From positions 1 through 11,577 of the IMG/VR virus record IMGVR_UViG_3300018477_000015: 11,577 nt of DNA; one strand, given 5' to 3'. The notes under the pieces are model-generated. The model was not told the DNA's origin. It was given only the letters and a program-made list of their open reading frames with translations, and made no database searches. Shown here one piece after another: positions 1 to 11,181 of this stretch. A program made the position numbers and the translations under genes. This DNA comes from a virus. Its lineage: Duplodnaviria > Heunggongvirae > Uroviricota > Caudoviricetes. The first letter of the stretch is position 1, and every line of letters begins with the position of its first letter.

Positions 1-87
1 GTGCTGGATTACATTGACGCGGTGACGGCAACAGATACCAGCACCGCGCCTGATATTATTTGGCCTGCTTTCCTTGAGACTGATTAA
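1..87 (+). CDS. tail fibre assembly protein (Tfa), C-terminal fragment; 5' end lies outside the window
   Basis: Frame 1 from base 1 reads VLDYIDAVTATDTSTAPDIIWPAFLETD followed by TAA at 85-87. The DTSTAPDI(E/I)WP motif is, as I remember it, the conserved C-terminus of lambda-type Tfa chaperones. No start codon in the window, so it is absent from the ORF track. Confidence 0.55.
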   Translation: MLDYIDAVTATDTSTAPDIIWPAFLETD

Positions 88-316
88 CCTCAATCAATAT
101 TGGTTCCCCTTTCTCATTAATTGTTAGCTCCATGCCCTGAGGAATTTCTGTCATAGTAAAAAACCAGTTGTCCTCCGGTAATTCAATAGCCCCGGTCACA
201 TCATGAAGACCGGGGATTACTTCAGTCAAAGTAACTGGATTAAACAGGCGCACAATAAACCCTCCAGGAAAAAGCATTTGATGATGGTCTGCCGTCGTAC
301 ATCTGGCAGCGGGCAT
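56..316 (-). CDS. hypothetical protein; possibly a short alternate tail-fibre assembly gene of the invertible segment
   Basis: 86-aa ORF convergent with the plus-strand Tfa fragment (the two stops overlap across 56-87), an arrangement like U/U' in Mu-type G segments. It lacks the conserved Tfa C-terminal motif and overlaps the upstream ORF by 77 nt, so coding status is uncertain. Confidence 0.3.
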   Translation of the reverse strand: MPAARCTTADHHQMLFPGGFIVRLFNPVTLTEVIPGLHDVTGAIELPEDNWFFTMTEIPQGMELTINEKGEPILIEVNQSQGKQAK

Positions 317-623
317 AAAAACCGGTATTTGTTACCTGATCATCCACGATCATTGAAACGTGAACATTATTAGGTGTGCTCTCGTAATCTGTTCTTATTC
401 TTTCCGCGATACTGATAAAACGTGAAAGTTTAGGCAGTGCAATTGGGTAAACGACTTTAGCCAGTCCATTATCATTAGACCCACCCGTTCCAAAGACTTC
501 TATTGCACCATCTGACCAGCGAATCCATGCACCATTGGCATTAGCTCCTCGCTGAATGATATATCTGGCTTCTCCCAAACCAACGTTTATGAAAATGCAG
601 AAATAACGATCAAATGGCATCAT
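240..623 (-). CDS. side tail fibre C-terminal receptor-binding segment, alternate unfused copy reading inward through the inversion crossover site
   Basis: The C-terminal portion resembles lambda Stf-type fibre tips by eye (YPIALP, VTNTGF, terminal WRVYCAPV versus lambda IRVMAIGY from memory). The ORF runs through the 26-bp crossover site at 570-595 and has no convincing RBS, as expected for a variable fibre segment expressed only after inversion fuses it to the constant part. Confidence 0.5.
   Translation of the reverse strand: MMPFDRYFCIFINVGLGEARYIIQRGANANGAWIRWSDGAIEVFGTGGSNDNGLAKVVYPIALPKLSRFISIAERIRTDYESTPNNVHVSMIVDDQVTNTGFYARCQMYDGRPSSNAFSWRVYCAPV
570..595. other. Hin/Gin/Pin-type inversion crossover site (26 bp, two imperfect inverted 12-bp half-sites around a central AA)
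   Basis: TTCTCCCAAACC-AA-CGTTTATGAAAA. It matches my recollection of hixL (TTCTTGAAAACCAAGGTTTTTGATAA) at about 20 of 26 positions and lies 55 bp upstream of the invertase start, the usual position. Confidence 0.6.
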
Positions 624-649
624 TCCTGCTTTTGTCAGGGAGATCTACC

Positions 650-1204
650 ATGCTTATTGGCTATGTACGTGTGTCAACAAATGACCAGAACACAGATCTA
701 CAACGTAATGCGCTGAACTGTGCAGGATGCGAGCTTATTTTTGAAGACAAGATAAGCGGTACAAAGTCCGAAAGGCCGGGACTGAAAAAACTGCTCAGGA
801 CATTATCGGCAGGTGACACGCTGGTGGTCTGGAAACTGGACCGGCTGGGGCGCAGTATGCGGCATCTTGTCGTGCTGGTGGAGGAGTTGCGCGAACGAGG
901 CATCAACTTTCGTAGTCTGACTGATTCAATTGATACCAGCACACCGATGGGGCGTTTTTTCTTTCATGTGATGGGGGCCCTGGCTGAAATGGAACGAGAA
1001 CTGATTGTTGAACGAACAAAAGCTGGACTGGAAGCTGCTCGCGCACAGGGACGAATTGGTGGACGTCGTCCCAAACTTACACCAGAACAATGGGCGCAGG
1101 CCGGGCGACTAATTGCATCAGGAGTTCCTCGCCAGAAGGTGGCGATCATTTATGATGTTGGCGTATCGACTTTGTATAAGAAGTTTCCGGTCGGAGATAA
1201 ATGA
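650..1204 (+). CDS. pin: serine recombinase, DNA invertase (Pin/Hin/Gin/Cin family)
   Basis: Translation from ATG 650 begins MLIGYVRVSTNDQNTDLQRNAL... with the catalytic-serine motif and C-terminal HTH (GRIGGRRPKLT...STLYKK), near-identical in pattern to e14 Pin as I recall it. AGGGAGA sits 6 nt upstream of ATG 650. The upstream ATG at 614 would add a non-conserved extension. Confidence 0.92.
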   Translation: MLIGYVRVSTNDQNTDLQRNALNCAGCELIFEDKISGTKSERPGLKKLLRTLSAGDTLVVWKLDRLGRSMRHLVVLVEELRERGINFRSLTDSIDTSTPMGRFFFHVMGALAEMERELIVERTKAGLEAARAQGRIGGRRPKLTPEQWAQAGRLIASGVPRQKVAIIYDVGVSTLYKKFPVGDK

Positions 1205-1284
1205 AACCGTAGCACGTCGTATGCAAGAACGTGCCACGGCTGGCTGATAAGCTTGTAAAAATATTGAACAGGGAGTGGAGCATT

Positions 1285-1932
1285 CTATGAAGCTAATTTG
1301 TTTAATTTCATTTGTAGTGACTTTACTTCTTGGTCGATAATGTCGAATCCCTTATTGACAGCATCTCTTAGCTCTGCATCAATATTTTTTATCCCTTGAG
1401 CATAATCTACCATTACATTTATTTTTGCATCATGTAATCTCTTATACATGGTTTTATCTTTGTTATTGTCTGCCATGCCAATAAGGATTTTTTCATAATC
1501 CTCAATGAGTTTGTTGTTTCCTTTAAATGATTGTATTAATGAGCGTGAATATGTGTATATGTTAATTATTGAGTCTCTAGCAGAATCATTTAGTTTTGCA
1601 ATGACATTCGCATTTTTCTCATAGAATGTGAAATTATCATCCCCTACAGGGAATGTGAGAATCAACATTTGTCCCGGTTTTATATTATCAATGTGTGTTT
1701 TCATCCTTTTATTATATAAATTGATTAGGGTGAAAACTTCTCCCTTAACTCCTTTTAATACTGAAAGTTGTAATTCAAGGGATTCTCTTTCTGTCTCTAC
1801 TTTAGACAGCTTAGCTTGTTGGGTAACTCCTTTTAGGGTAAACCATCCGCCAATAAGAGTACCAACTAGAGCTGTGAGGGAGGAGGATAACCATCCAGGT
1901 ATGCTATTTAAAAGATTACTAAATTCACTCAT
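1285..1932 (-). CDS. hypothetical membrane-anchored protein (single N-terminal TM helix, then coiled-coil and globular region); AT-rich accessory gene
   Basis: 215-aa ORF. Residues about 10-32 (IPGWLSSSLTALVGTLIGGWFTL) are hydrophobic, followed by a charged heptad-like stretch. Low GC compared with flanking phage genes. No family recognised. Confidence 0.6.
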   Translation of the reverse strand: MSEFSNLLNSIPGWLSSSLTALVGTLIGGWFTLKGVTQQAKLSKVETERESLELQLSVLKGVKGEVFTLINLYNKRMKTHIDNIKPGQMLILTFPVGDDNFTFYEKNANVIAKLNDSARDSIINIYTYSRSLIQSFKGNNKLIEDYEKILIGMADNNKDKTMYKRLHDAKINVMVDYAQGIKNIDAELRDAVNKGFDIIDQEVKSLQMKLNKLAS

Positions 1933-1990
1933 TATAAGTACTCGCTAATATTGAACGATATATATATCAAATTATTATAAAACTCGTCAG

Positions 1991-2269
1991 CTACTGGAGA
2001 AGGCTACCTGAACTTCGATCTATTCCTGCATCCATATAGTTGATGGTCTTCTGGAGCTCTTCGATTAGGGCAACAGCTTTTGCTCGAGAAATGCATATTA
2101 GTTGATCCGGAAATTCTTGTAAGGGCCAGTTTGGTATACAGGCCATGTTATCAGTGAAGGATGCAGACAAGTAAACTTCATTGGTAACCAGAGAATAGCT
2201 TACCTCAAAATTGGTGAGTTCCGGCAAACTGCTAACGTTTGACTCTTTTCTGCGCATAATATTATCCAT
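1991..2269 (-). CDS. hypothetical small protein; start uncertain (ATG at 2269 giving about 92 aa, or upstream ATG at 2419 giving 142 aa)
   Basis: Open frame in the AT-rich island. The N-terminal 50 residues of the long form are Cys/Trp-rich and contain the C9T6 tract, so the shorter form is favoured. No clear SD for either start. Confidence 0.35.
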   Translation of the reverse strand: MDNIMRRKESNVSSLPELTNFEVSYSLVTNEVYLSASFTDNMACIPNWPLQEFPDQLICISRAKAVALIEELQKTINYMDAGIDRSSGSLLQ

Positions 2270-2346
2270 GACTGTAATTATGTACAGGTGATGGTCTTCA
2301 ATTTCGAAGAGGGAGTCAAGGGGGAGTCTCAAATGAACCGTTATAG

Positions 2347-2361
2347 AAAAAAGGGGGGGGG
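2347..2361. repeat. homopolymeric tract A6G9 (C9T6 on the minus strand)
   Basis: Direct reading: aaaaaa at 2347-2352, ggggggggg at 2353-2361. Confidence 0.9.
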
Positions 2362-2409
2362 ATCTTTGTGTTGCTGAACTTATGCAAAATTTTTTTGCAC
2401 CATAAATCC

Positions 2410-2670
2410 AACAACACATTCAATAACACATTGCTGTATCACTATGAAAATAAATGTGTTTTTATTTGATTTCACACATATCACAATTAATACAGCGTTT
2501 AGTAATTAGTAAAGACATTTCAATGAATTACCGTTAAATCATTTTAAAATCAGTAAGTTGTATCGAGTTTGTATGCTTTACTGTCATTAACTTACTGTAT
2601 GTTGATCCAGTGTATTTAACCTTGATAAACTCAGTCCAGCAACACAAAACCGCAACACATTGCATTTTGT
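2410..2670. promoter_or_regulatory. AT-rich integrase-upstream region with repeated short motifs; candidate attP arm-site or int regulatory region
   Basis: AACACATT at 2413-2420, 2425-2432 and 2654-2661, with an inverted copy at 2453-2460. A 9-bp perfect inverted repeat CAGTAAGTT/AACTTACTG at 2551-2559 and 2589-2597. Repeated TTGTAT and TTACTGT motifs. Confidence 0.3.
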
Positions 2671-4130: not shown

Positions 4131-4327
4131 TACTGGCTGCGACATTTTTGAATAAAAGCGTCGATATTTCGGCGCTCATAACGAACTACTTTTGCACTGA
4201 AACGAATTGGTGCCAGGATAGCCCGATGACGATGCTTAATATTCCACTCACATAGCGTTTTCTGTGTAATACCTAACTTTTGGCATACTTCATCCGGGGT
4301 GAGTAAATCGTCGGGTTTCTCGCTCAT
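4127..4327 (-). CDS. AlpA/excisionase-family small HTH DNA-binding protein (candidate recombination directionality factor)
   Basis: 66 aa. LLTPDEVCQKLGITQKTLCEWNIK...ILAPIRFSAKVVRYERRNIDAFI fits the AlpA/Xis winged-helix pattern. Its ATG overlaps the helicase stop (ATGA at 4324-4327) and its stop overlaps the int stop convergently. Confidence 0.65.
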   Translation of the reverse strand: MSEKPDDLLTPDEVCQKLGITQKTLCEWNIKHRHRAILAPIRFSAKVVRYERRNIDAFIQKCRSQY

Positions 4328-5718
4328 GCTATACCTCTCTTTTTCATGGCATCGAGCAGGATGTCCTGCACTGTTCGTTTTGAGTTGCGCCGCTCCATCA
4401 CCATTTCATCCATAGTGTCGGCAGCAATAATGTGGTGAATAAATACCGGACGATTGTGTCCGGCCTGTATCTGCCTGGTGGGGCCGATACGTTCAATAAT
4501 TTGCTGATATTGCTCCAGGTCCCACCAGTGTGAGAAAAATACCAGTATATTTCCGCCGTCCTGCATGTTCAGGCCGTGGCCCGCGCTGGCTGGGTGTGCA
4601 AAGAGAACAGGAATCTTTCCGGAATTCCAGTCGCGCAGTGTCTGTGGATCCTGGTCGAGGTGACGACCGCGAGGGAATGCTTTAAGCAAGCGTTCAAGAT
4701 CGTGTTTCCAGTGATAAGCAACCAGCACAGGTGCGCCAGCTGCTTCGGTCAGTATGCTGTCCAGCGCCTGTAGTTTGGTGTCATGCAGTTCTGACCAACT
4801 TCCGGTGTCATCTGTGTATACTGCGCCGCTGGCGATTTGCAGACACTTCAGTGTCTTTGCCGCGGCGTTCGGTGCTTCGATGCCTTCGCCATTCAGCTCG
4901 AGGAACATTTCCTTTTCCATTTCACGATACTGCTGACGGGCCTTCGGCGGCATATCCACGCGGATTACGTTATGGATGGGGTCTTTGATATCGAACCAGT
5001 CGGCCGCATCCAGCGAGAGGGTTACATCGGCTAACGCTCGCTGTATTTCACCCTGTGAGTGAGCAAAAGGCTCCAGTTTGGTCCAGCTCTGCCCCGGAAA
5101 CTGTATCGAGTTGAACCAGCGTGAGGTAAACGCGCCGTAAGTGCGCCCGAGACGTTGCCCCTGGTCCACAAACCACGATTGTCCCCACAAATCTACCAGG
5201 CCGTTCGGTGCTGGCGTACCGGTGAGATTTATCCAGCGCCGGACATACTTATGCGCCACTTTGCCCAGCGCCGCCGCGCGCTTACCACCACCGCGCAGCC
5301 GGAAGGATTTTAGCCGGGTGCTTTCATCTGGAATGACAGTACCGAACGGCCATCGTTCTCCCAATTCTTCAACCAGCCAGACAAGGTTATCGTAGTTGAT
5401 GGTGAACACGCTTGCGTTGCTGTTCGTCAGCGCCATAGAGCGCGCTTTGGCATTACCAATAATTGGCTGCACCTCGATATTGCGCAAATGTCCCCACTTC
5501 AGTGCTTCATCCGGCCATGTGCTGGCAGCCACGCGCAGCGGCGCGAGGACCAGTGCGGGGCATGTTTCTGCCCCTGCCATAAAGAGATCTTCCAGCGCAG
5601 TGAGCGTTGCCACGGTTTTACCCATTCCCATCCCCGCCCAGATGTTGCCGCGCAGGGTTTCGGTTTCGTGGTTGATAATGAGATCTTGGTAGGGGCGAGG
5701 TATATATTTTGGGGGCAT
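4324..5718 (-). CDS. SNF2-family ATP-dependent helicase (phage replication or recombination module)
   Basis: 464 aa with RPYQ, Walker A AGMGMGKT, DExx box IPDESTRL, motif III LTGTPAPN and a C-terminal GLNMQ...ERIGPTRQIQAG block resembling SNF2 motifs V/VI. AGGAG sits 9 nt upstream of ATG 5718. Confidence 0.85.
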   Translation of the reverse strand: MPPKYIPRPYQDLIINHETETLRGNIWAGMGMGKTVATLTALEDLFMAGAETCPALVLAPLRVAASTWPDEALKWGHLRNIEVQPIIGNAKARSMALTNSNASVFTINYDNLVWLVEELGERWPFGTVIPDESTRLKSFRLRGGGKRAAALGKVAHKYVRRWINLTGTPAPNGLVDLWGQSWFVDQGQRLGRTYGAFTSRWFNSIQFPGQSWTKLEPFAHSQGEIQRALADVTLSLDAADWFDIKDPIHNVIRVDMPPKARQQYREMEKEMFLELNGEGIEAPNAAAKTLKCLQIASGAVYTDDTGSWSELHDTKLQALDSILTEAAGAPVLVAYHWKHDLERLLKAFPRGRHLDQDPQTLRDWNSGKIPVLFAHPASAGHGLNMQDGGNILVFFSHWWDLEQYQQIIERIGPTRQIQAGHNRPVFIHHIIAADTMDEMVMERRNSKRTVQDILLDAMKKRGIA

Positions 5719-5732
5719 ATAATATGGCTCCT

Positions 5733-5768
5733 AAACAACAAAAGGCCAATTTAGGCCTTTTGTTGTTT
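5733..5768. other. perfect 15-bp inverted repeat with 6-nt loop (possible attenuator, weak terminator or processing hairpin)
   Basis: AAACAACAAAAGGCC-AATTTA-GGCCTTTTGTTGTTT. It lies between the stop of the 305-aa gene (5781) and the helicase RBS, and is U-rich on either strand. Confidence 0.5.
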
Positions 5769-5780
5769 TAAAAATGTTAT

Positions 5781-6698
5781 TTATAATAGTGCTGTTACTA
5801 TTGCATCTTTAAAAATATTTTCTTCTTCATTTATTAAAGGTGATGACAGATGAATAATTACTTCTTTTCCTGTCAATACTATTTGCTCGACTTGAAATCC
5901 TGCGTTGTGTAGTCTTTGGCGTAACTTTTCTAGTGCTGATTTTGATATACTAAATCCTTCACTCCTTATAGTATAACTGGCAACTCCATTTTTAATAATA
6001 TCTACAGAGTTGTCAATTTCCTGCTGCGAGTAATTTTTCGGTGAGTCGAAAAATCTGGATTTTGTCGTTGCTGTTGCCCTAAGAGATATCAATAATGATT
6101 TGATATCTTTAATCTCAGATGCCAGATACTCAGTTTCTGATACTTCTTTCTGGTCTAGTTGTGCAACTTTGAAAGTGCCAAAATGTTTGAGGAATGTTGT
6201 GTATTCAGGATCAGTTACTGACTTTAAATATGTTTCTTTTATCTTGCTCGCAAGTCTTTCTTTGAATAAATTGATTGATTGGTATCTTAAATCCGAAGGG
6301 TACTCTAAATGTTCAATTGATGAAATGTCAAAGCTATAAGGAGTGCGCTCGTCCTTAATAATTACGGTCGGTTTGTCAAATGCGAGACGCATTCCTAATT
6401 CAAACATTACATTAGCGTTTCGAGCACTTATATCGCAAACAACTATGGGGTTTTCATAAAGATTTTGAACAATTCGTTTTTGTATTACTGCAACATCATC
6501 ATCTGAACTTACCAAATTTGCCTTGAATCCGGCATCATTTGATGCTTCACAAATAATGTCATGAACATTTCTCCAATGTCCAGTGGGATAACCTTCTATG
6601 TCCGCAATTGGCATAATAATGCCGCATATATGAGGTGGCATATTTTTGTTGTCTTTTACATCATCTTGGTTTATTTCTTTCGTTTGTTGCTTAGCCAT
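5781..6698 (-). CDS. hypothetical protein with N-terminal TIR-like / nucleoside 2-deoxyribosyltransferase-like (Rossmannoid) domain and uncharacterised C-terminal domain; AT-rich insertion
   Basis: 305 aa. N-terminal region has ICGIIMPIA, then DDDVAVIQKRIVQNLYENPIVVCDISARNANVMFELGMRLAFDKPTVIIKDE and EYPSDLRY. The FE(L)G acidic motif after a buried strand is typical of TIR-like (PF10137-type) and NDT-like folds as I recall them. GC content is clearly lower than in the flanking helicase and VRR-NUC genes. Confidence 0.5.
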   Translation of the reverse strand: MAKQQTKEINQDDVKDNKNMPPHICGIIMPIADIEGYPTGHWRNVHDIICEASNDAGFKANLVSSDDDVAVIQKRIVQNLYENPIVVCDISARNANVMFELGMRLAFDKPTVIIKDERTPYSFDISSIEHLEYPSDLRYQSINLFKERLASKIKETYLKSVTDPEYTTFLKHFGTFKVAQLDQKEVSETEYLASEIKDIKSLLISLRATATTKSRFFDSPKNYSQQEIDNSVDIIKNGVASYTIRSEGFSISKSALEKLRQRLHNAGFQVEQIVLTGKEVIIHLSSPLINEEENIFKDAIVTALL

Positions 6699-6713
6699 AG
6701 CTTACACAGACTC

Positions 6714-6998
6714 CTATTGTAATTTTTTGCCTAATATACATGAAAGCTCCTTACTATCCAGTACTACCACGGTAAAGCCCAGTTTTCGCAGACGTTCATG
6801 CTCGCGCAACTGATCAGGTCGTGGTGGTTTGCCTGGTGCTTTGCATTCGACAAAGACGATGCGACCGCCGGGTAGCAGAACAATGCGATCTGGTACCGAG
6901 CGGAGACCGGGAGATACGAACTTAAAAGCAACCCCGCCAGCCTTTTTTACTTCAGCGACGAGGTGCTTTTCGATTAGGTTTTCACGTTCATAGGCCAT
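6714..6998 (-). CDS. VRR-NUC domain nuclease (PD-(D/E)xK family)
   Basis: 94 aa. GLRSVPDRIVLLPGGRIVFVECKAPGKPPRPDQ contains the D...E-x-K signature in the size and arrangement typical of VRR-NUC, a usual partner of phage SNF2 helicases. Confidence 0.8.
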   Translation of the reverse strand: MAYERENLIEKHLVAEVKKAGGVAFKFVSPGLRSVPDRIVLLPGGRIVFVECKAPGKPPRPDQLREHERLRKLGFTVVVLDSKELSCILGKKLQ

Positions 6999-7192
6999 TA
7001 GCTTTCGCCTTCCTGCTTTTTGCGTTTCTTCATGCAGATAGCGCAGTTCTCAGGATGGTCATGCCATTCGTCAATCCTGATACCTGTGAACATCCATTTT
7101 CCGCATAGTGATATGGCTTCCCCCGAATTAAAGAAATGTGCTTTTTTCGACAGGGCGGGGAACCCCCAACCTTTATTATCGATATTAGACAT
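6998..7192 (-). CDS. small putative zinc-binding protein (64 aa), translationally coupled to the VRR-NUC gene
   Basis: Strong SD (AAGGAGG, 6 nt before ATG 7192). Its stop overlaps the VRR-NUC start (TAATG at 6996-7000). Contains a C-x13-H-x-H-x4-C-x2-C motif (SLCGKW...EWHDHPENCAIC). Confidence 0.55.
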   Translation of the reverse strand: MSNIDNKGWGFPALSKKAHFFNSGEAISLCGKWMFTGIRIDEWHDHPENCAICMKKRKKQEGES

Positions 7193-7370
7193 CGTCCACC
7201 TCCTTACGCTTTTCGCGCATGTTCTGCATCAGACAAAAATCAAACCGACGTTCGCTTTGGCCCAGACCTGCATCGCCCGGTCGTACCCGCTGGACTGTTC
7301 AAGGCGCAAAGCCTCCCGCGCAGTCCGGTAATAAAGCGGACTGTCCCGGTATTTAAATGACATAGGGTTT

Positions 7371-7403
7371 TTATTCCCAAATAAAAAACCCCGCAATGCA
7401 GGG
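7371..7403 (-). terminator. rho-independent terminator downstream of the 253-aa gene (minus-strand sense)
   Basis: Minus-strand RNA forms CCCUGC-AUU-GCGGGG (6-bp stem with one G-U pair) followed by UUUUUUAUUU. It lies about 24 nt after the stop at 7428. Confidence 0.5.
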
Positions 7404-7427
7404 TTGTAATCAACAATAAGGGGGTAA

Positions 7428-8189
7428 TTACGAGGAAGCGTTAGCTATTTGAGCTTGTGTAAATTCGAAACCAGAATTTTGTAACCGTTGCACTAGACGA
7501 GGAACTGTTTCACGTACATGGTCGTTGAAATTCAGATACAAAATCCCGTTAGCATCAGAAGGCTGTTCTAGGTGCTGTTTCTGAAGGATTGCTACATTGC
7601 TGCGCCCTAAGGACGAAAGAAGCATACCCATCTCGAGTACAACGTTCTGTCTTGCGCGGGGTTGGATTTCTGCTTCACCGGCGCGCTTTGAGTATCCCAT
7701 ATCATCAGGTGTCAAAAGAACAATCCCGAAACGGGTAGCAGTTTGTCCTTGCCCAATTTCACGTTCAAGCTCTTCAATAATGGTGAGTCCAGTCCCTCCC
7801 GTATTCTGCAAAATGAAATGGTCTGGTAATCCAAGTTTATGAAGGATTAGCTCAAGTTGTTCCTTTGCAGTATGGTCATGGCCGTGAACAATGAATATCT
7901 TTTTGGGAAGCTCAGATGGCTGTTCTACGGCTAGTGGTGTTGCCGTGGGGGGCGTTCCTAAATGGGACATTATTGCAGTTTCAACATTGGGACGTTCTTG
8001 AGGGTTACCTTGAAACTGAATGGTCCGGGTGGTGTAAAGGTTAACAATTACGCCATTCGTTAAACGATAGCAGTCATAAGTCTCACGCTGTTCGTGGGAA
8101 AAATTGGTGAACCCACACTCCCTCAAAAAGTCAGGAAAAGATTCTCTCGGGTATGGATAGGTGATCGGCATTTCAGTTAGTTCCTGCAT
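7428..8189 (-). CDS. TIR-like domain protein (C-terminal TIR-like/NDT-like Rossmannoid domain, uncharacterised N-terminal domain of about 95 aa)
   Basis: 253 aa. C-terminal half has KIFIVHGHD, then FGIVLLTPDDMG...PRARQNVVLEMGMLLSSLGRSNVAILQK and QPSDANGILYLNF, the same motif order as the 305-aa protein and matching my recollection of the PF10137-type TIR-like family. AGGA about 10 nt upstream of ATG 8189. Followed by its own terminator. Confidence 0.55.
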   Translation of the reverse strand: MQELTEMPITYPYPRESFPDFLRECGFTNFSHEQRETYDCYRLTNGVIVNLYTTRTIQFQGNPQERPNVETAIMSHLGTPPTATPLAVEQPSELPKKIFIVHGHDHTAKEQLELILHKLGLPDHFILQNTGGTGLTIIEELEREIGQGQTATRFGIVLLTPDDMGYSKRAGEAEIQPRARQNVVLEMGMLLSSLGRSNVAILQKQHLEQPSDANGILYLNFNDHVRETVPRLVQRLQNSGFEFTQAQIANASS

Positions 8190-8253
8190 AAGTATTGTTC
8201 CTTTAATTTACTCGAATTCAGCATGTCGCCATAGCTCGATAAGGTGAGTTATA

Positions 8254-10350
8254 TCAATCTTTTTTGTAGTGGTACGCCTCAAAGCCGCCAGCGTTCAGCG
8301 GAATATCGGGTGCCCATTCGGGGTTAGTGGAGAGAAGCGCGGAAAGCGCTTTATCGTTGAAATCTTCTGTGTCTGGTGCTTCGGTGATCACCTCGTCGTG
8401 TACCGTTAGCACAATGCTGTAACCGGCACCCTCGATCAGCGGCATGTTTCTGGCCAGAACGTCGCGGGCGGCCGCCTGGGTGACGTTCTCCACCAGCTTT
8501 CCGCCGTAGGTTTTGAGTCGTTGCCATTTACGCGAATAAGAGTTAACACCCATGTAGGTGATATTCCCTTGTTCGATAACCGGAGACGGGTAGCATACAG
8601 CGCGTCCGGATGGTAGCTGTATGCGCAGCCACGCGCCATCACGTCGGATTTTAAGATAGCCGCAATACAATGTTTTTTGCGGTATGGCGATTGCTGTGCG
8701 GACAGTGCGCTCCAGCTCGTACCAGAAATCGCAGGTCGCCGGGTGCGCCCTGCGCCACAGGCGCTTGAGCGAGTCACATGCGATGAATACACGCTCGGAA
8801 AGGCCAAAGGTCGACTTACGTTTAACCGATTCGTCGTACCAGCTTTTCGCCTCGCGGATAACATCGCGGGGAATGTTTGGCAGTGCGGCGTTCGCCAGCT
8901 CGTCGAGATCGAGACCGTAAACCAGAGCAAAAGTGATGAAAGCCGATACACCACCTCCATAACCCAGACCGAGTTCCATGACTTTACCGATCTGACGCAT
9001 GTGTTTATCAACATCATCTGGTGCAATATCGAAAGCTTTTGCATACGCCAGTTTATATAAGTCCGGACCCGTTCCAGCGTCATACTCTCTGAATGCATTC
9101 AGTTTCCATTCTTCTCCCGCCAGCCATGCCAGCATACGGCCTTCAATGTTTGACAAGTCACTTACCACCAGTTTTTTGCCTGTTGGCGCGATAATGCAGC
9201 CACGTAACGCTGAACTGGTTAGTTCCATGATATTGTCAAACAGCAGGTCTGCACATCCGGCTTTCAGTGCTTCGATGCCTTCGTCTATTTGTTCCTGTTT
9301 TAGTGAAGGGCGGGGAAGGTTCTGGGGCTGGAATAGCCGTCCGGCCCAACGACCGGTACGTGACGCCCCGCAGAACTGTAGCGTACCGCGTAAGCGCCCG
9401 TCGTGGCTTACGCCTTTCATCAGTGCCTTGTATTTACTGGTGCTGGTAGTACTGGCTTGCAGGCGGATAGCCAGCAGTTCTTTCACGGCAGATGATAAAT
9501 CGGGGTCGGCCATACGACGTTCCAGGGTACTGCGTTGCATGTCTGGTAGCTCCACACCGTAGGATTCAACGATGTGCTTAATCAACGCGTCCCGTTGTGT
9601 GGCTGCCTGCACTTCGCCATCAGTCATTTCCTGTGTACGCTTTGCCAGGCGCTTTTGCTCCTGGTCTACCGCTTCGATCGCAGCGCGCGCGAGTTGCATG
9701 TCCATGCAGACGCCCCGGTCGTTGATCTGCTGATCACGATGCCAGAGCGCCAGCTCTGTCCCCTGATAATTCCACTTCGGCAGACGTTTATAGACTTCGC
9801 GCATTGCTTCGATATCCAGTCCGGCGTAAGCAACAAAGCGCCGCCATTCTTCCGGATGGGTTTTACTGGTGGCCCGACGCAGTTTGCTGTTTTTCGGATG
9901 TGGCTTACAGAACAGCTGGATCAGCGCTTTACCTTCTTTGTCCTTCGCTTTGTCTTGCGGGACGCCTAGTACTTCGCAGAGTTCCCCCAGAGACCCCGGG
10001 AGACCGTGCGCCAGCGCCTGCACCATCGTGTCGCGCCAACGTTCGACTGGCGGTGCCAGTCGCGGCATTGCATAACGCAGAACGGTGCGGTCGAAGTGAG
10101 AGTTATGGAAATAAAGCAGGGTTTCAGGGTCTGCGATTGCTTCGTATAAGCCGTGTGGAATACCACCACCGGCAGTGATATCCCACACGTTTACTGGCCC
10201 GTCGTTGATAGCCCATGCGAAAAGCATCACTTCAACGCCTTCGGCATACGCATGGGTACCGTTCGTAATAGGGATTTCGCAATAGGTTTCCAGGTCGCCC
10301 CAGAGAATACTTTGATGTTGTTTATTTGAGGGGACTATATTATTTTTCAT
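8254..10350 (-). CDS. family A DNA polymerase with N-terminal 3'-5' exonuclease domain (phage-type PolA)
   Basis: 698 aa. Exo motif LWGDLETY, polymerase motif [21 protein letters not shown], motif [17 protein letters not shown], motif C LTVHDEV. Confidence 0.9.
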
Positions 10351-10384
10351 ATGGGCAAACTAGCTAATAAAGTTGAGGAAAAAA

Positions 10385-10588
10385 ATGTCTGAATCTAAGT
10401 TCAAACCTGGAGACCGCGTACAACATCTTTCTGGTGGGCCTGTTCTTGTGGTTGTTAGCACAGGATATATTCCTGCAACAGCTTTTAATGGCGACTTCAT
10501 TCGCGTAACTTGTGAATTTTGGGATGAATCTAAAAAAGCTTTCGTAAAACAGGATTTTGTTGAAACTTCTCTTGAAGATTACGAATAA
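10385..10588 (+). CDS. DUF2158 (YodC-like) small protein
   Basis: About 67 aa from ATG 10385, with GAGGA 5 nt upstream; the track's 10373 start is a TTG. KPGDRVQHLSGGPVLVV...CEFWDESKKAFVKQDFVETSL fits the GD.V.L.SGGP...C.WFD...K..F pattern of the DUF2158 family. It lies opposite in orientation to the surrounding replication genes. Confidence 0.65.
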   Translation: MSESKFKPGDRVQHLSGGPVLVVVSTGYIPATAFNGDFIRVTCEFWDESKKAFVKQDFVETSLEDYE

Positions 10589-10604
10589 CTCATAACACAA
10601 TCCT

Positions 10605-10628
10605 CAAAGCGCCCCTAAGGGCGCTTTG
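10605..10628. terminator. bidirectional hairpin terminator between convergent genes
   Basis: Perfect 10-bp stem CAAAGCGCCC / GGGCGCTTTG with CTAA loop, followed by GCGTTT on the plus strand. It sits 17 nt after the DUF2158 stop and 4 nt after the DUF2815 stop. Confidence 0.55.
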
Positions 10629-10632
10629 GCGT

Positions 10633-11181
10633 TTAAATCAGTGCTTCAGCATCAGCACCTTCGCTGATATCGTCGAAATCGTCAGCGCTTGCCACTCCGC
10701 CGCCAGCGAATGCATCGCCGTCTCGCAGGAACTGGACTCCGCCGAGTGAGGCATTAATGCGTTTACCGAAATTATTGTCCTGTGCCCAGATATCGATAAC
10801 GGCGTTTACATAGCACCCTGCATAGGGACGTCCATCAGCCTGAATTAGTGGCGAACGATCGCGATCAAGAACAGCTGGGCGCGCTTTGTTAGCAGCATTC
10901 AGGAAGAAATTACCGGGGAAGCCTTCATACTCTGCTTTTTCATCACCATCATGCAGGCACAGATTGAGTTTTTTCTCCAGTTGGTTATAAATGGGCTCCC
11001 ACTTCTCTCCCCATTTTTCCTTCGCTACCTGCTTCATAGCTTTACGGATTTCTTCCAGTTGTGGGTGTTTGGGAGACATTAAAAATACTGCGGAGAAACG
11101 CGGATCGCCTTCGCCGTTTACAGTTTTAGCTTCAAACAGAGACGGGAAGGCCAGACGAACATTGTTCAGCTTCAGTTTCAT
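10633..11181 (-). CDS. DUF2815-family phage protein (ssDNA-binding-like), with acidic C-terminal tail
   Basis: 182 aa beginning MKLKLNNVRLAF, the N-terminal signature I associate with DUF2815 proteins found next to phage family A polymerases. AAGGAAA SD 8 nt upstream. C-terminus is DDFDDISEGADAEALI. Confidence 0.65.
   Translation of the reverse strand: MKLKLNNVRLAFPSLFEAKTVNGEGDPRFSAVFLMSPKHPQLEEIRKAMKQVAKEKWGEKWEPIYNQLEKKLNLCLHDGDEKAEYEGFPGNFFLNAANKARPAVLDRDRSPLIQADGRPYAGCYVNAVIDIWAQDNNFGKRINASLGGVQFLRDGDAFAGGGVASADDFDDISEGADAEALI

Follow-up and report, generated by a model that had tools for sequence, protein, structure and literature searches.

Between the gene of a TIR-domain protein and that of a 64 aa protein, a tailed phage (Caudoviricetes; IMG/VR record IMGVR_UViG_3300018477_000015) possesses a stretch of 235 nt, positions 7193-7427 of the window, i.e. 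of the whole 11,577 nt of DNA analysed here. The question that this locus raises is whether the stretch regulates the genes downstream, encodes a small protein, or is left over from something else. The original prediction described a structured intergenic region with a terminator, palindromes, the motif ATTTAAAT and a 44 aa ORF. All of these features are present at the positions given, and the translation of the minus-strand ORF at 7229-7363 agrees exactly. To call the stretch intergenic would be misleading, as 179 nt on the minus strand (7185-7363) are the remnant of a gene.

Layout of the region

Every gene in this part of the window is encoded on the minus strand (Table 1). The ancestral stop codon of the remnant (TAA, 7187-7185) overlaps the start codon of the 64 aa gene, an arrangement shared with the related prophage L006, in which the upstream gene is intact and the AAGGAGG motif upstream of the 64 aa gene is kept likewise. 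Judged from this 8 nt overlap, the 64 aa gene was apparently coupled translationally to its upstream neighbour in the ancestral layout. Three plus-strand ORFs (7020-7331, 7136-7360 and 7219-7356) run antisense to the remnant and the 64 aa gene and were set aside as artefacts.

Table 1. Coordinates of genes and sequence features in and around the 7193-7427 stretch of the window
Feature	Position	Strand	Evidence or remark
DUF2815/Enc34-type SSB	10633-11181	minus	
Family-A DNA polymerase (PolA)	8254-10350	minus	
TIR-domain protein, 253 aa, cargo upstream of ANR	7428-8189	minus	PF10137, PADLOC PDC-S35
Intrinsic-terminator-like element (stem-loop 7405-7387, T-run 7386-7377)	7377-7405	minus	consensus scan, fold
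A/T palindrome GGGTTTTT...AAAAACCC	7365-7391	none	inverted-repeat search
Putative pseudogene of ANR-family small regulator, 179 nt	7185-7363	minus	RefSeq, alignments A1 and A2
44 aa ORF (ANR residues 1-38 and frameshifted tail VGLIFV)	7229-7363	minus	NF033650, phrog_2227
ATTTAAAT	7351-7358	none	ANR codons 2-5
7 bp inverted repeat CAGTCCG/CGGACTG	7321-7343	none	ANR codons 7-15
Junction of the 40 nt deletion	7253-7256	minus	alignments A1 and A2
Shine-Dalgarno AAGGAGG of the 64 aa gene, within the old ANR 3' end	7199-7205	minus	sequence reading
64 aa gene (phrog_2358), ATG at 7192	6998-7192	minus	downstream of ANR
VRR-NUC	6714-6998	minus	
305 aa gene	5781-6698	minus	
SNF2 helicase	4324-5718	minus	

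An ANR-family remnant

The 44 aa ORF matches the NCBIfam profile of the ANR family transcriptional regulators (NF033650, E = 3.5e-7) within profile positions 2-29 of 54, and its score of 30.0 bits lies below the curated cutoff of 32 bits, which is set over the whole 54-position profile. It also matches phrog_2227 (E = 1.6e-9). A Pfam search with the same ORF returned nothing meaningful and no PerC match. Induced E. coli phages (vB_EcoM-606R2 and relatives) and prophages of complete E. coli genomes share 99.6-99.9% identity with the window, and in two of these prophages (L001, E. coli Rb-50; L004, IAI1) the RefSeq PGAP label at the locus is 'ANR family transcriptional regulator, frameshifted'. 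The presence of an ANR pseudogene at this locus is thus an ordinary finding, already recorded in RefSeq.

Intact ANR genes of 71-73 aa occupy the same position in the related E. coli prophages L003, L005, L006, L008, L009 and L010 (for example MSFKYRDSPLYYRAAREALRLEQSGEYDRAAKVWAKANRQSRNELNQDWSERRSDFCLMQNMREKRKEVDDV). The window copy shares its position and both flanks with them and is collinear with them throughout, except for a gap of 40 nt. As part of an explanation of the whole region (terminator plus dead ANR gene) that we consider highly probable, 7185-7363 is therefore read from these alignments as an ANR-family pseudogene. The original prediction, in which the small ORF could be a regulator or else spurious, was half right, as the ORF preserves the N-terminal part of a genuine ANR-family regulator gene. 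Two longer ORFs with TTG starts (55 aa from 7396, and 58 aa in another frame) were rejected, as the ATG at 7363 aligns with the starts of all intact homologs; the TTG sits in the terminator loop.

ANR stands for AraC Negative Regulator, with Aar of enteroaggregative E. coli as the prototype (Santiago et al. 2014, 2016, 2017); the activity expected of members of the family is to bind and inhibit activators of the AraC/XylS family and/or H-NS. They are small (<10 kDa) all-alpha proteins of three conserved helices, with a signature of A, E, A, W and A in helices 1-2 and of W, R, an aromatic residue and C in helix 3 (PMC4983702). The intact prophage relatives are likewise small and predicted to form three helices, carry the family signature (A..E..A..W..A...W..R..F-C), and reach 63.9-72.6 bits over profile positions 2-54 of NF033650, twofold above the cutoff; the window ORF is homologous to their N-terminal half. 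Aar adjoins an AraC-family virulence activator, whereas the intact prophage versions sit in a replication module (PolA-ANR-VRR-NUC-helicase). An intact 72 aa relative remains below threshold for the PerC/Pch family (PF06069) of small prophage and plasmid regulators (E = 0.001, 19.7 bits vs a cutoff of 22.6) and matches PHROG families labelled 'transcriptional activator' more weakly (E 2e-5 to 8e-3); for a PerC-like protein encoded by a PICI, an ANR-like nature has been proposed (PMC11773190). By sequence search the intact homolog has no relative in the PDB (best E = 1.2), and PADLOC searches with the intact ANR and with the 64 aa protein gave no match.

Compared with these proteins, the window copy is 40 nt shorter, frameshifted, below the family cutoff and without helix 3. 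In the AlphaFold (AF2) model of the intact homolog P0006 (pLDDT 89) helices span residues 9-24, 27-40 and 44-70. The window product ends at residue 44, with homology up to residue 38 only, and would accordingly stop inside helix 2, so that helix 1 and the larger part of helix 2 remain and the predicted helix 3 is lost. The signature residues A18, E22, A30, W34 and A37 are kept; W49, R53, F56 and C57 are absent from the translated frame. In Aar, activity, AggR binding and oligomerisation need helices 2 and 3, including N-x-E-W...R..F-C, and most mutations that are inactivating or affect AggR binding and oligomerisation fall in these two helices, including E-W, N-R and F-C (PMC4983702). The Shine-Dalgarno sequence of the 44 aa ORF is also weaker (GGGA vs GAGG or AGGAG in the intact relatives). 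Going by sequence and predicted structure, the 44 aa product is probably non-functional.

The 40-nucleotide deletion

In DNA alignments to the intact genes (A1, A2), exactly 40 nt are missing from the copies of the window, IAI1 and GF4, which leaves 179 nt of an ancestral 219 nt gene of 72 aa. The lost stretch lies between ...GCCAAAGC and GAACG..., with an imperfect AGC-N-AAC repeat at its boundaries. Because of this flanking microhomology the placement of the gap is ambiguous: A1 and A2 differ by 3 nt, and the junction can fall anywhere within AAAGCGAAC. Replication slippage between the AGC-N-AAC repeats is most likely the origin of the deletion. Its consequence is a shift of frame after codon 38, the tail VGLIFV and then a stop, i.e. 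the 44 aa ORF.

Intact ANR genes hold a weak hairpin with a T-run (GGACTGGAGCGAACGCCGGTCT GATTTTTGTC) within their coding sequence (L006, 3143-3164; L009, 3100-3121; both minus strand). The deletion takes away the 5' arm of this hairpin and ends in its loop; the hairpin may have favoured the deletion, or the correspondence may be a coincidence.

Distribution and further decay of the deleted allele

A 381 nt query of the region was found in about 146 of 5,426 complete E. coli genomes, and a 71 nt stretch across the deletion junction at 100% identity in 38 of the same 5,426. A 26 nt junction pattern occurs on 13 IMG/VR contigs, and the exact 44 aa protein on 187 contigs of the protein collection. 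An exact junction search in the GTDB species representatives gave 0 matches and thus no evidence of the deleted allele outside the sampled E. coli lineage. The deleted allele stands beside differing neighbours: between TIR (upstream) and the 64 aa gene (downstream) in the window, between Bro-N and VRR-NUC in GF4, between a Bro-type gene and the 64 aa gene in L016, and downstream of an IS66-family element in L021. Recombination has hence moved the allele between mosaics.

Six DNA haplotypes of the remnant were seen, which differ mainly by non-synonymous changes. Six intact alleles have a pooled pN/pS of 0.10 over codons 1-38 and the deleted alleles one of about 0.7, the latter value comprising 10 non-synonymous and 4 synonymous pairwise differences from fewer than 10 mutational events. 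Constraint is relaxed in the deleted alleles, with non-synonymous changes at positions conserved in intact alleles (A15V, R20H, P9L, E26G, A31M); some of the differences of the GF4 allele may derive from recombination with intact alleles instead of new mutation. Disruption of the small ORF in close relatives, which according to the original prediction would argue against it, does occur. In L021 (IMG/VR contig UViG_2648501437_000036; allele encoding protein P0004) the IS66-family element (4985-6057; TnpB_IS66, E = 5e-40, and an HTH transposase ORF) abuts codon 3, with removal of the ATG and the ribosome binding site. Furthermore, the ANR alleles P0016 and P0018 were frameshifted independently, the former near codon 32 and the latter near codon 25. 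Unless these are assembly errors, the ANR gene has been inactivated more than once.

The ORF is free of premature stops in all six haplotypes that keep the ATG, and together with the occurrence of the exact protein on 187 contigs this means that the fragment may still be expressed. A step further, the 44 aa product could be a two-helix ANR with a kept or acquired function, namely a micro-protein binding H-NS, AraC-family proteins or full-length ANRs, or a dominant-negative ANR partner. The five signature residues retained in helices 1-2, the open frame, the presence of the allele in at least four mosaic contexts and a pN/pS of the deleted alleles below 1 are consistent with such a role. It is nevertheless improbable given the loss of helix 3 and of residues that Aar needs for activity and oligomerisation, the weaker Shine-Dalgarno sequence, the changes at conserved positions, the start codon removed in L021 and the independent inactivation of other alleles of the gene.

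Alleles whose middle parts diverge by 10-15% show hardly any variation at the two ends of the ANR gene, namely over its final ~30 nt (CTGATGCAGAACATGCG-GAAAAGCGTAAGG) and its initial ~20 nt (window 7199-7233; A2 columns 264-296). The neighbouring genes up- and downstream change exactly at these near-invariant ends, which may, to go by the alignments, represent conserved recombination boundaries of the mosaic.

Palindromes and the promoter question

The main claim of the original prediction was that the stretch holds promoter and operator of the downstream operon, i.e. that it is a regulatory spacer with operator palindromes for the 64 aa, VRR-NUC, 305 aa and helicase genes. Two features would fit such a spacer. 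With a terminator directly upstream, the downstream genes need either read-through or a new transcription start, and the hairpin that 7315-7350 forms locally stands out by its stability (-17.9 kcal/mol, z = -4.0). This hairpin contains the inverted repeat of CAGTCCG (7321-7327) and CGGACTG (7337-7343) with a loop of 9 nt, which encodes D-S-P-L-Y-Y-R-T-A of the ANR protein. In a covariation test on a 9-sequence alignment none of its pairs carried changes in both arms; 4 of the 9 sequences break the closing pair, and 2 break another one. Amino acid conservation is thus enough to explain the inverted repeat, which is not conserved independently of coding. The ATTTAAAT motif (tca ttt aaa tac, encoding S-F-K-Y) is invariant as coding sequence in all intact and deleted alleles. 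The palindromes that had been taken for operators are accordingly coding sequence of ANR (codons 7-15 and 2-5), with no compensatory changes.

No sigma-70-like site was found on the minus strand of 7150-7480, neither at the standard threshold (9 of 12) nor at a lenient 7 of 12. In the cargo-less prophage L003 a gap of 5 nt separates the end of PolA from the beginning of ANR, whose stop codon in turn overlaps the following gene, so that the ancestral layout, an uninterrupted operon of PolA, ANR and the next gene, has no room for a promoter or operator. We therefore give the regulatory spacer a small chance at best. Under the preferred reading of the stretch as terminator plus ANR remnant, transcription could pass the terminator towards the replication genes by read-through, antitermination or an atypical promoter.

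Terminator and cargo genes

The terminator is a part of the original prediction that stands, supported as an element of rho-independent type by both scan and fold. On the minus strand a stem of 8 pairs, 5 of them GC, with a loop of 3 nt (7405-7387: AACCCTGC-ATT-GCGGGGTT, followed by TTTTATTTGG) starts 22 nt past the TIR stop codon. A consensus scan of 6500-8500 found this terminator-like match as the only one, and the fold energy of the hairpin is -11.3 kcal/mol (z = -3.5), a value reached by 0 of 200 shuffles. With a GC-rich stem-loop, a U-run and a location downstream of a stop codon, the sequence has the properties of a rho-independent terminator, and the hairpin probably terminates transcription.

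The TIR protein matches PF10137 (CAP12/Pycsar TIR, E = 2.9e-31) and PADLOC PDC-S35 (E = 1.3e-108), which makes its gene a candidate single-gene anti-phage defence gene; no paper on PDC-S35 turned up in a literature search. PolA and ANR are separated by a variable slot. A TIR gene fills it in the window and in IAI1, L005 and L008; L006 has Ant there, L007 Bro-N and L010 a small ORF, and in L003 the slot is empty. The other larger cargo genes (L005, L006, L007, L008) are each followed by their own GC hairpin and T-run of different sequence, and no hairpin terminator is present upstream of ANR in cargo-less L003. The terminator consequently belongs to the cargo gene.

Morons (Hendrix/Juhala concept) are cargo genes that have entered a phage genome between conserved genes and bring a terminator of their own. 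The TIR gene resembles them in that it is present, absent or replaced in otherwise collinear prophages, and in the hairpin and T-run that follow each larger cargo gene. A difference is that no convincing promoter of its own was found upstream: sigma-70 matches at 8190-8253 reach at best 7 of 12, none of them at the standard threshold.

Further variable positions were observed in the window. The 305 aa protein, encoded between VRR-NUC and helicase, is weakly TIR-like (PADLOC TIR effector, E = 1e-6; PF10137, E = 0.011), and its gene forms a second variable slot, occupied in relatives by a Dcm methyltransferase, DUF6338, Rha/Arc regulators or unrelated ORFs. Positions 10044-10632 (5' end of the PolA gene and the 282 nt gap before the DUF2815 gene) are unalignable to the otherwise 99.6% identical Rb-50 prophage (L001), which carries a SIR2-family gene there; this looks like a third cargo hot spot. 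Window positions 1-2470 do not match the chromosomal flank of L001 (pdxJ-acpS-shoB-yfhL) beside the integrase, and identity begins at 2471. The window may thus derive from another integration context or from an excised phage form.

In the A/T palindrome, the T-run of the terminator pairs with a run of A that immediately precedes the ANR start codon (arms GGGTTTTT at 7365-7372 and AAAAACCC at 7384-7391). As the terminator hairpin and this alternative hairpin share a GGGG(U)n segment and are mutually exclusive, they could act as a switch that sets read-through from the PolA/TIR side into the replication genes; L005, too, has GGGG...CCCC flanking the ribosome binding site region. We consider such a switch very improbable. 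On its own the A/T palindrome folds at -9.1 kcal/mol, weaker than the terminator hairpin and marginal against shuffles (z = -2.15, 5 of 200 as good), it is absent from the minimum-energy fold of the 71 nt context, and it is missing in L006 and L007, after the Ant and Bro cargo genes. An Rfam scan of 6900-7700 at E <= 1 yielded two chance-level matches (E = 0.47 and 0.65), far below the gathering scores, and neither a sensor element nor a leader peptide is evident.

Conclusions

Taken together, the terminator of the TIR cargo gene and a decayed ANR gene very probably account for the region. An intrinsic terminator would close a moron-like TIR cargo gene inserted between PolA and ANR, and would be followed by the prophage's copy of a small regulator gene of the ANR family, now dead. 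In this copy the 40 nt deletion, most likely a product of slippage, shifted the frame after codon 38, producing the 44 aa ORF and leaving the old 3' end untranslated. As this 3' end keeps the ribosome binding site of the 64 aa gene, the 64 aa, VRR-NUC, 305 aa and helicase genes would still be independently translatable.

Programmed -1 ribosomal frameshifting, by which a longer ANR-like protein would be restored from two frames, has in its favour that the ancestral C-terminus (…DFCLMQNMREKRKEVDDV*) can still be read without interruption in the -1 frame and its DNA is highly conserved, but it is rejected as practically negligible because the slippery site is absent (no in-frame X XXY YYZ heptamer near the junction; zero frame gtc ggt ttg att ttt gtc tga), its product would miss 13 residues from the end of helix 2 to the start of helix 3, including W49, and the ribosome binding site of the next gene plus recent divergence are a simpler cause of the 3' conservation.

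The correct label for the stretch is 'ANR-family pseudogene (40-nt deletion) plus terminator of the TIR cargo gene'; labels such as promoter/operator region or new small gene do not suit it, a correction of little importance beyond annotation. If the 44 aa fragment were functional after all, this would explain the spread of the allele across prophage mosaics and the ORF staying open. For the prophage family, the ANR-like gene is conserved as part of the replication module, and its repeated loss, by the 40 nt deletion, independent frameshifts and IS insertion, suggests that the gene is dispensable for the phage.
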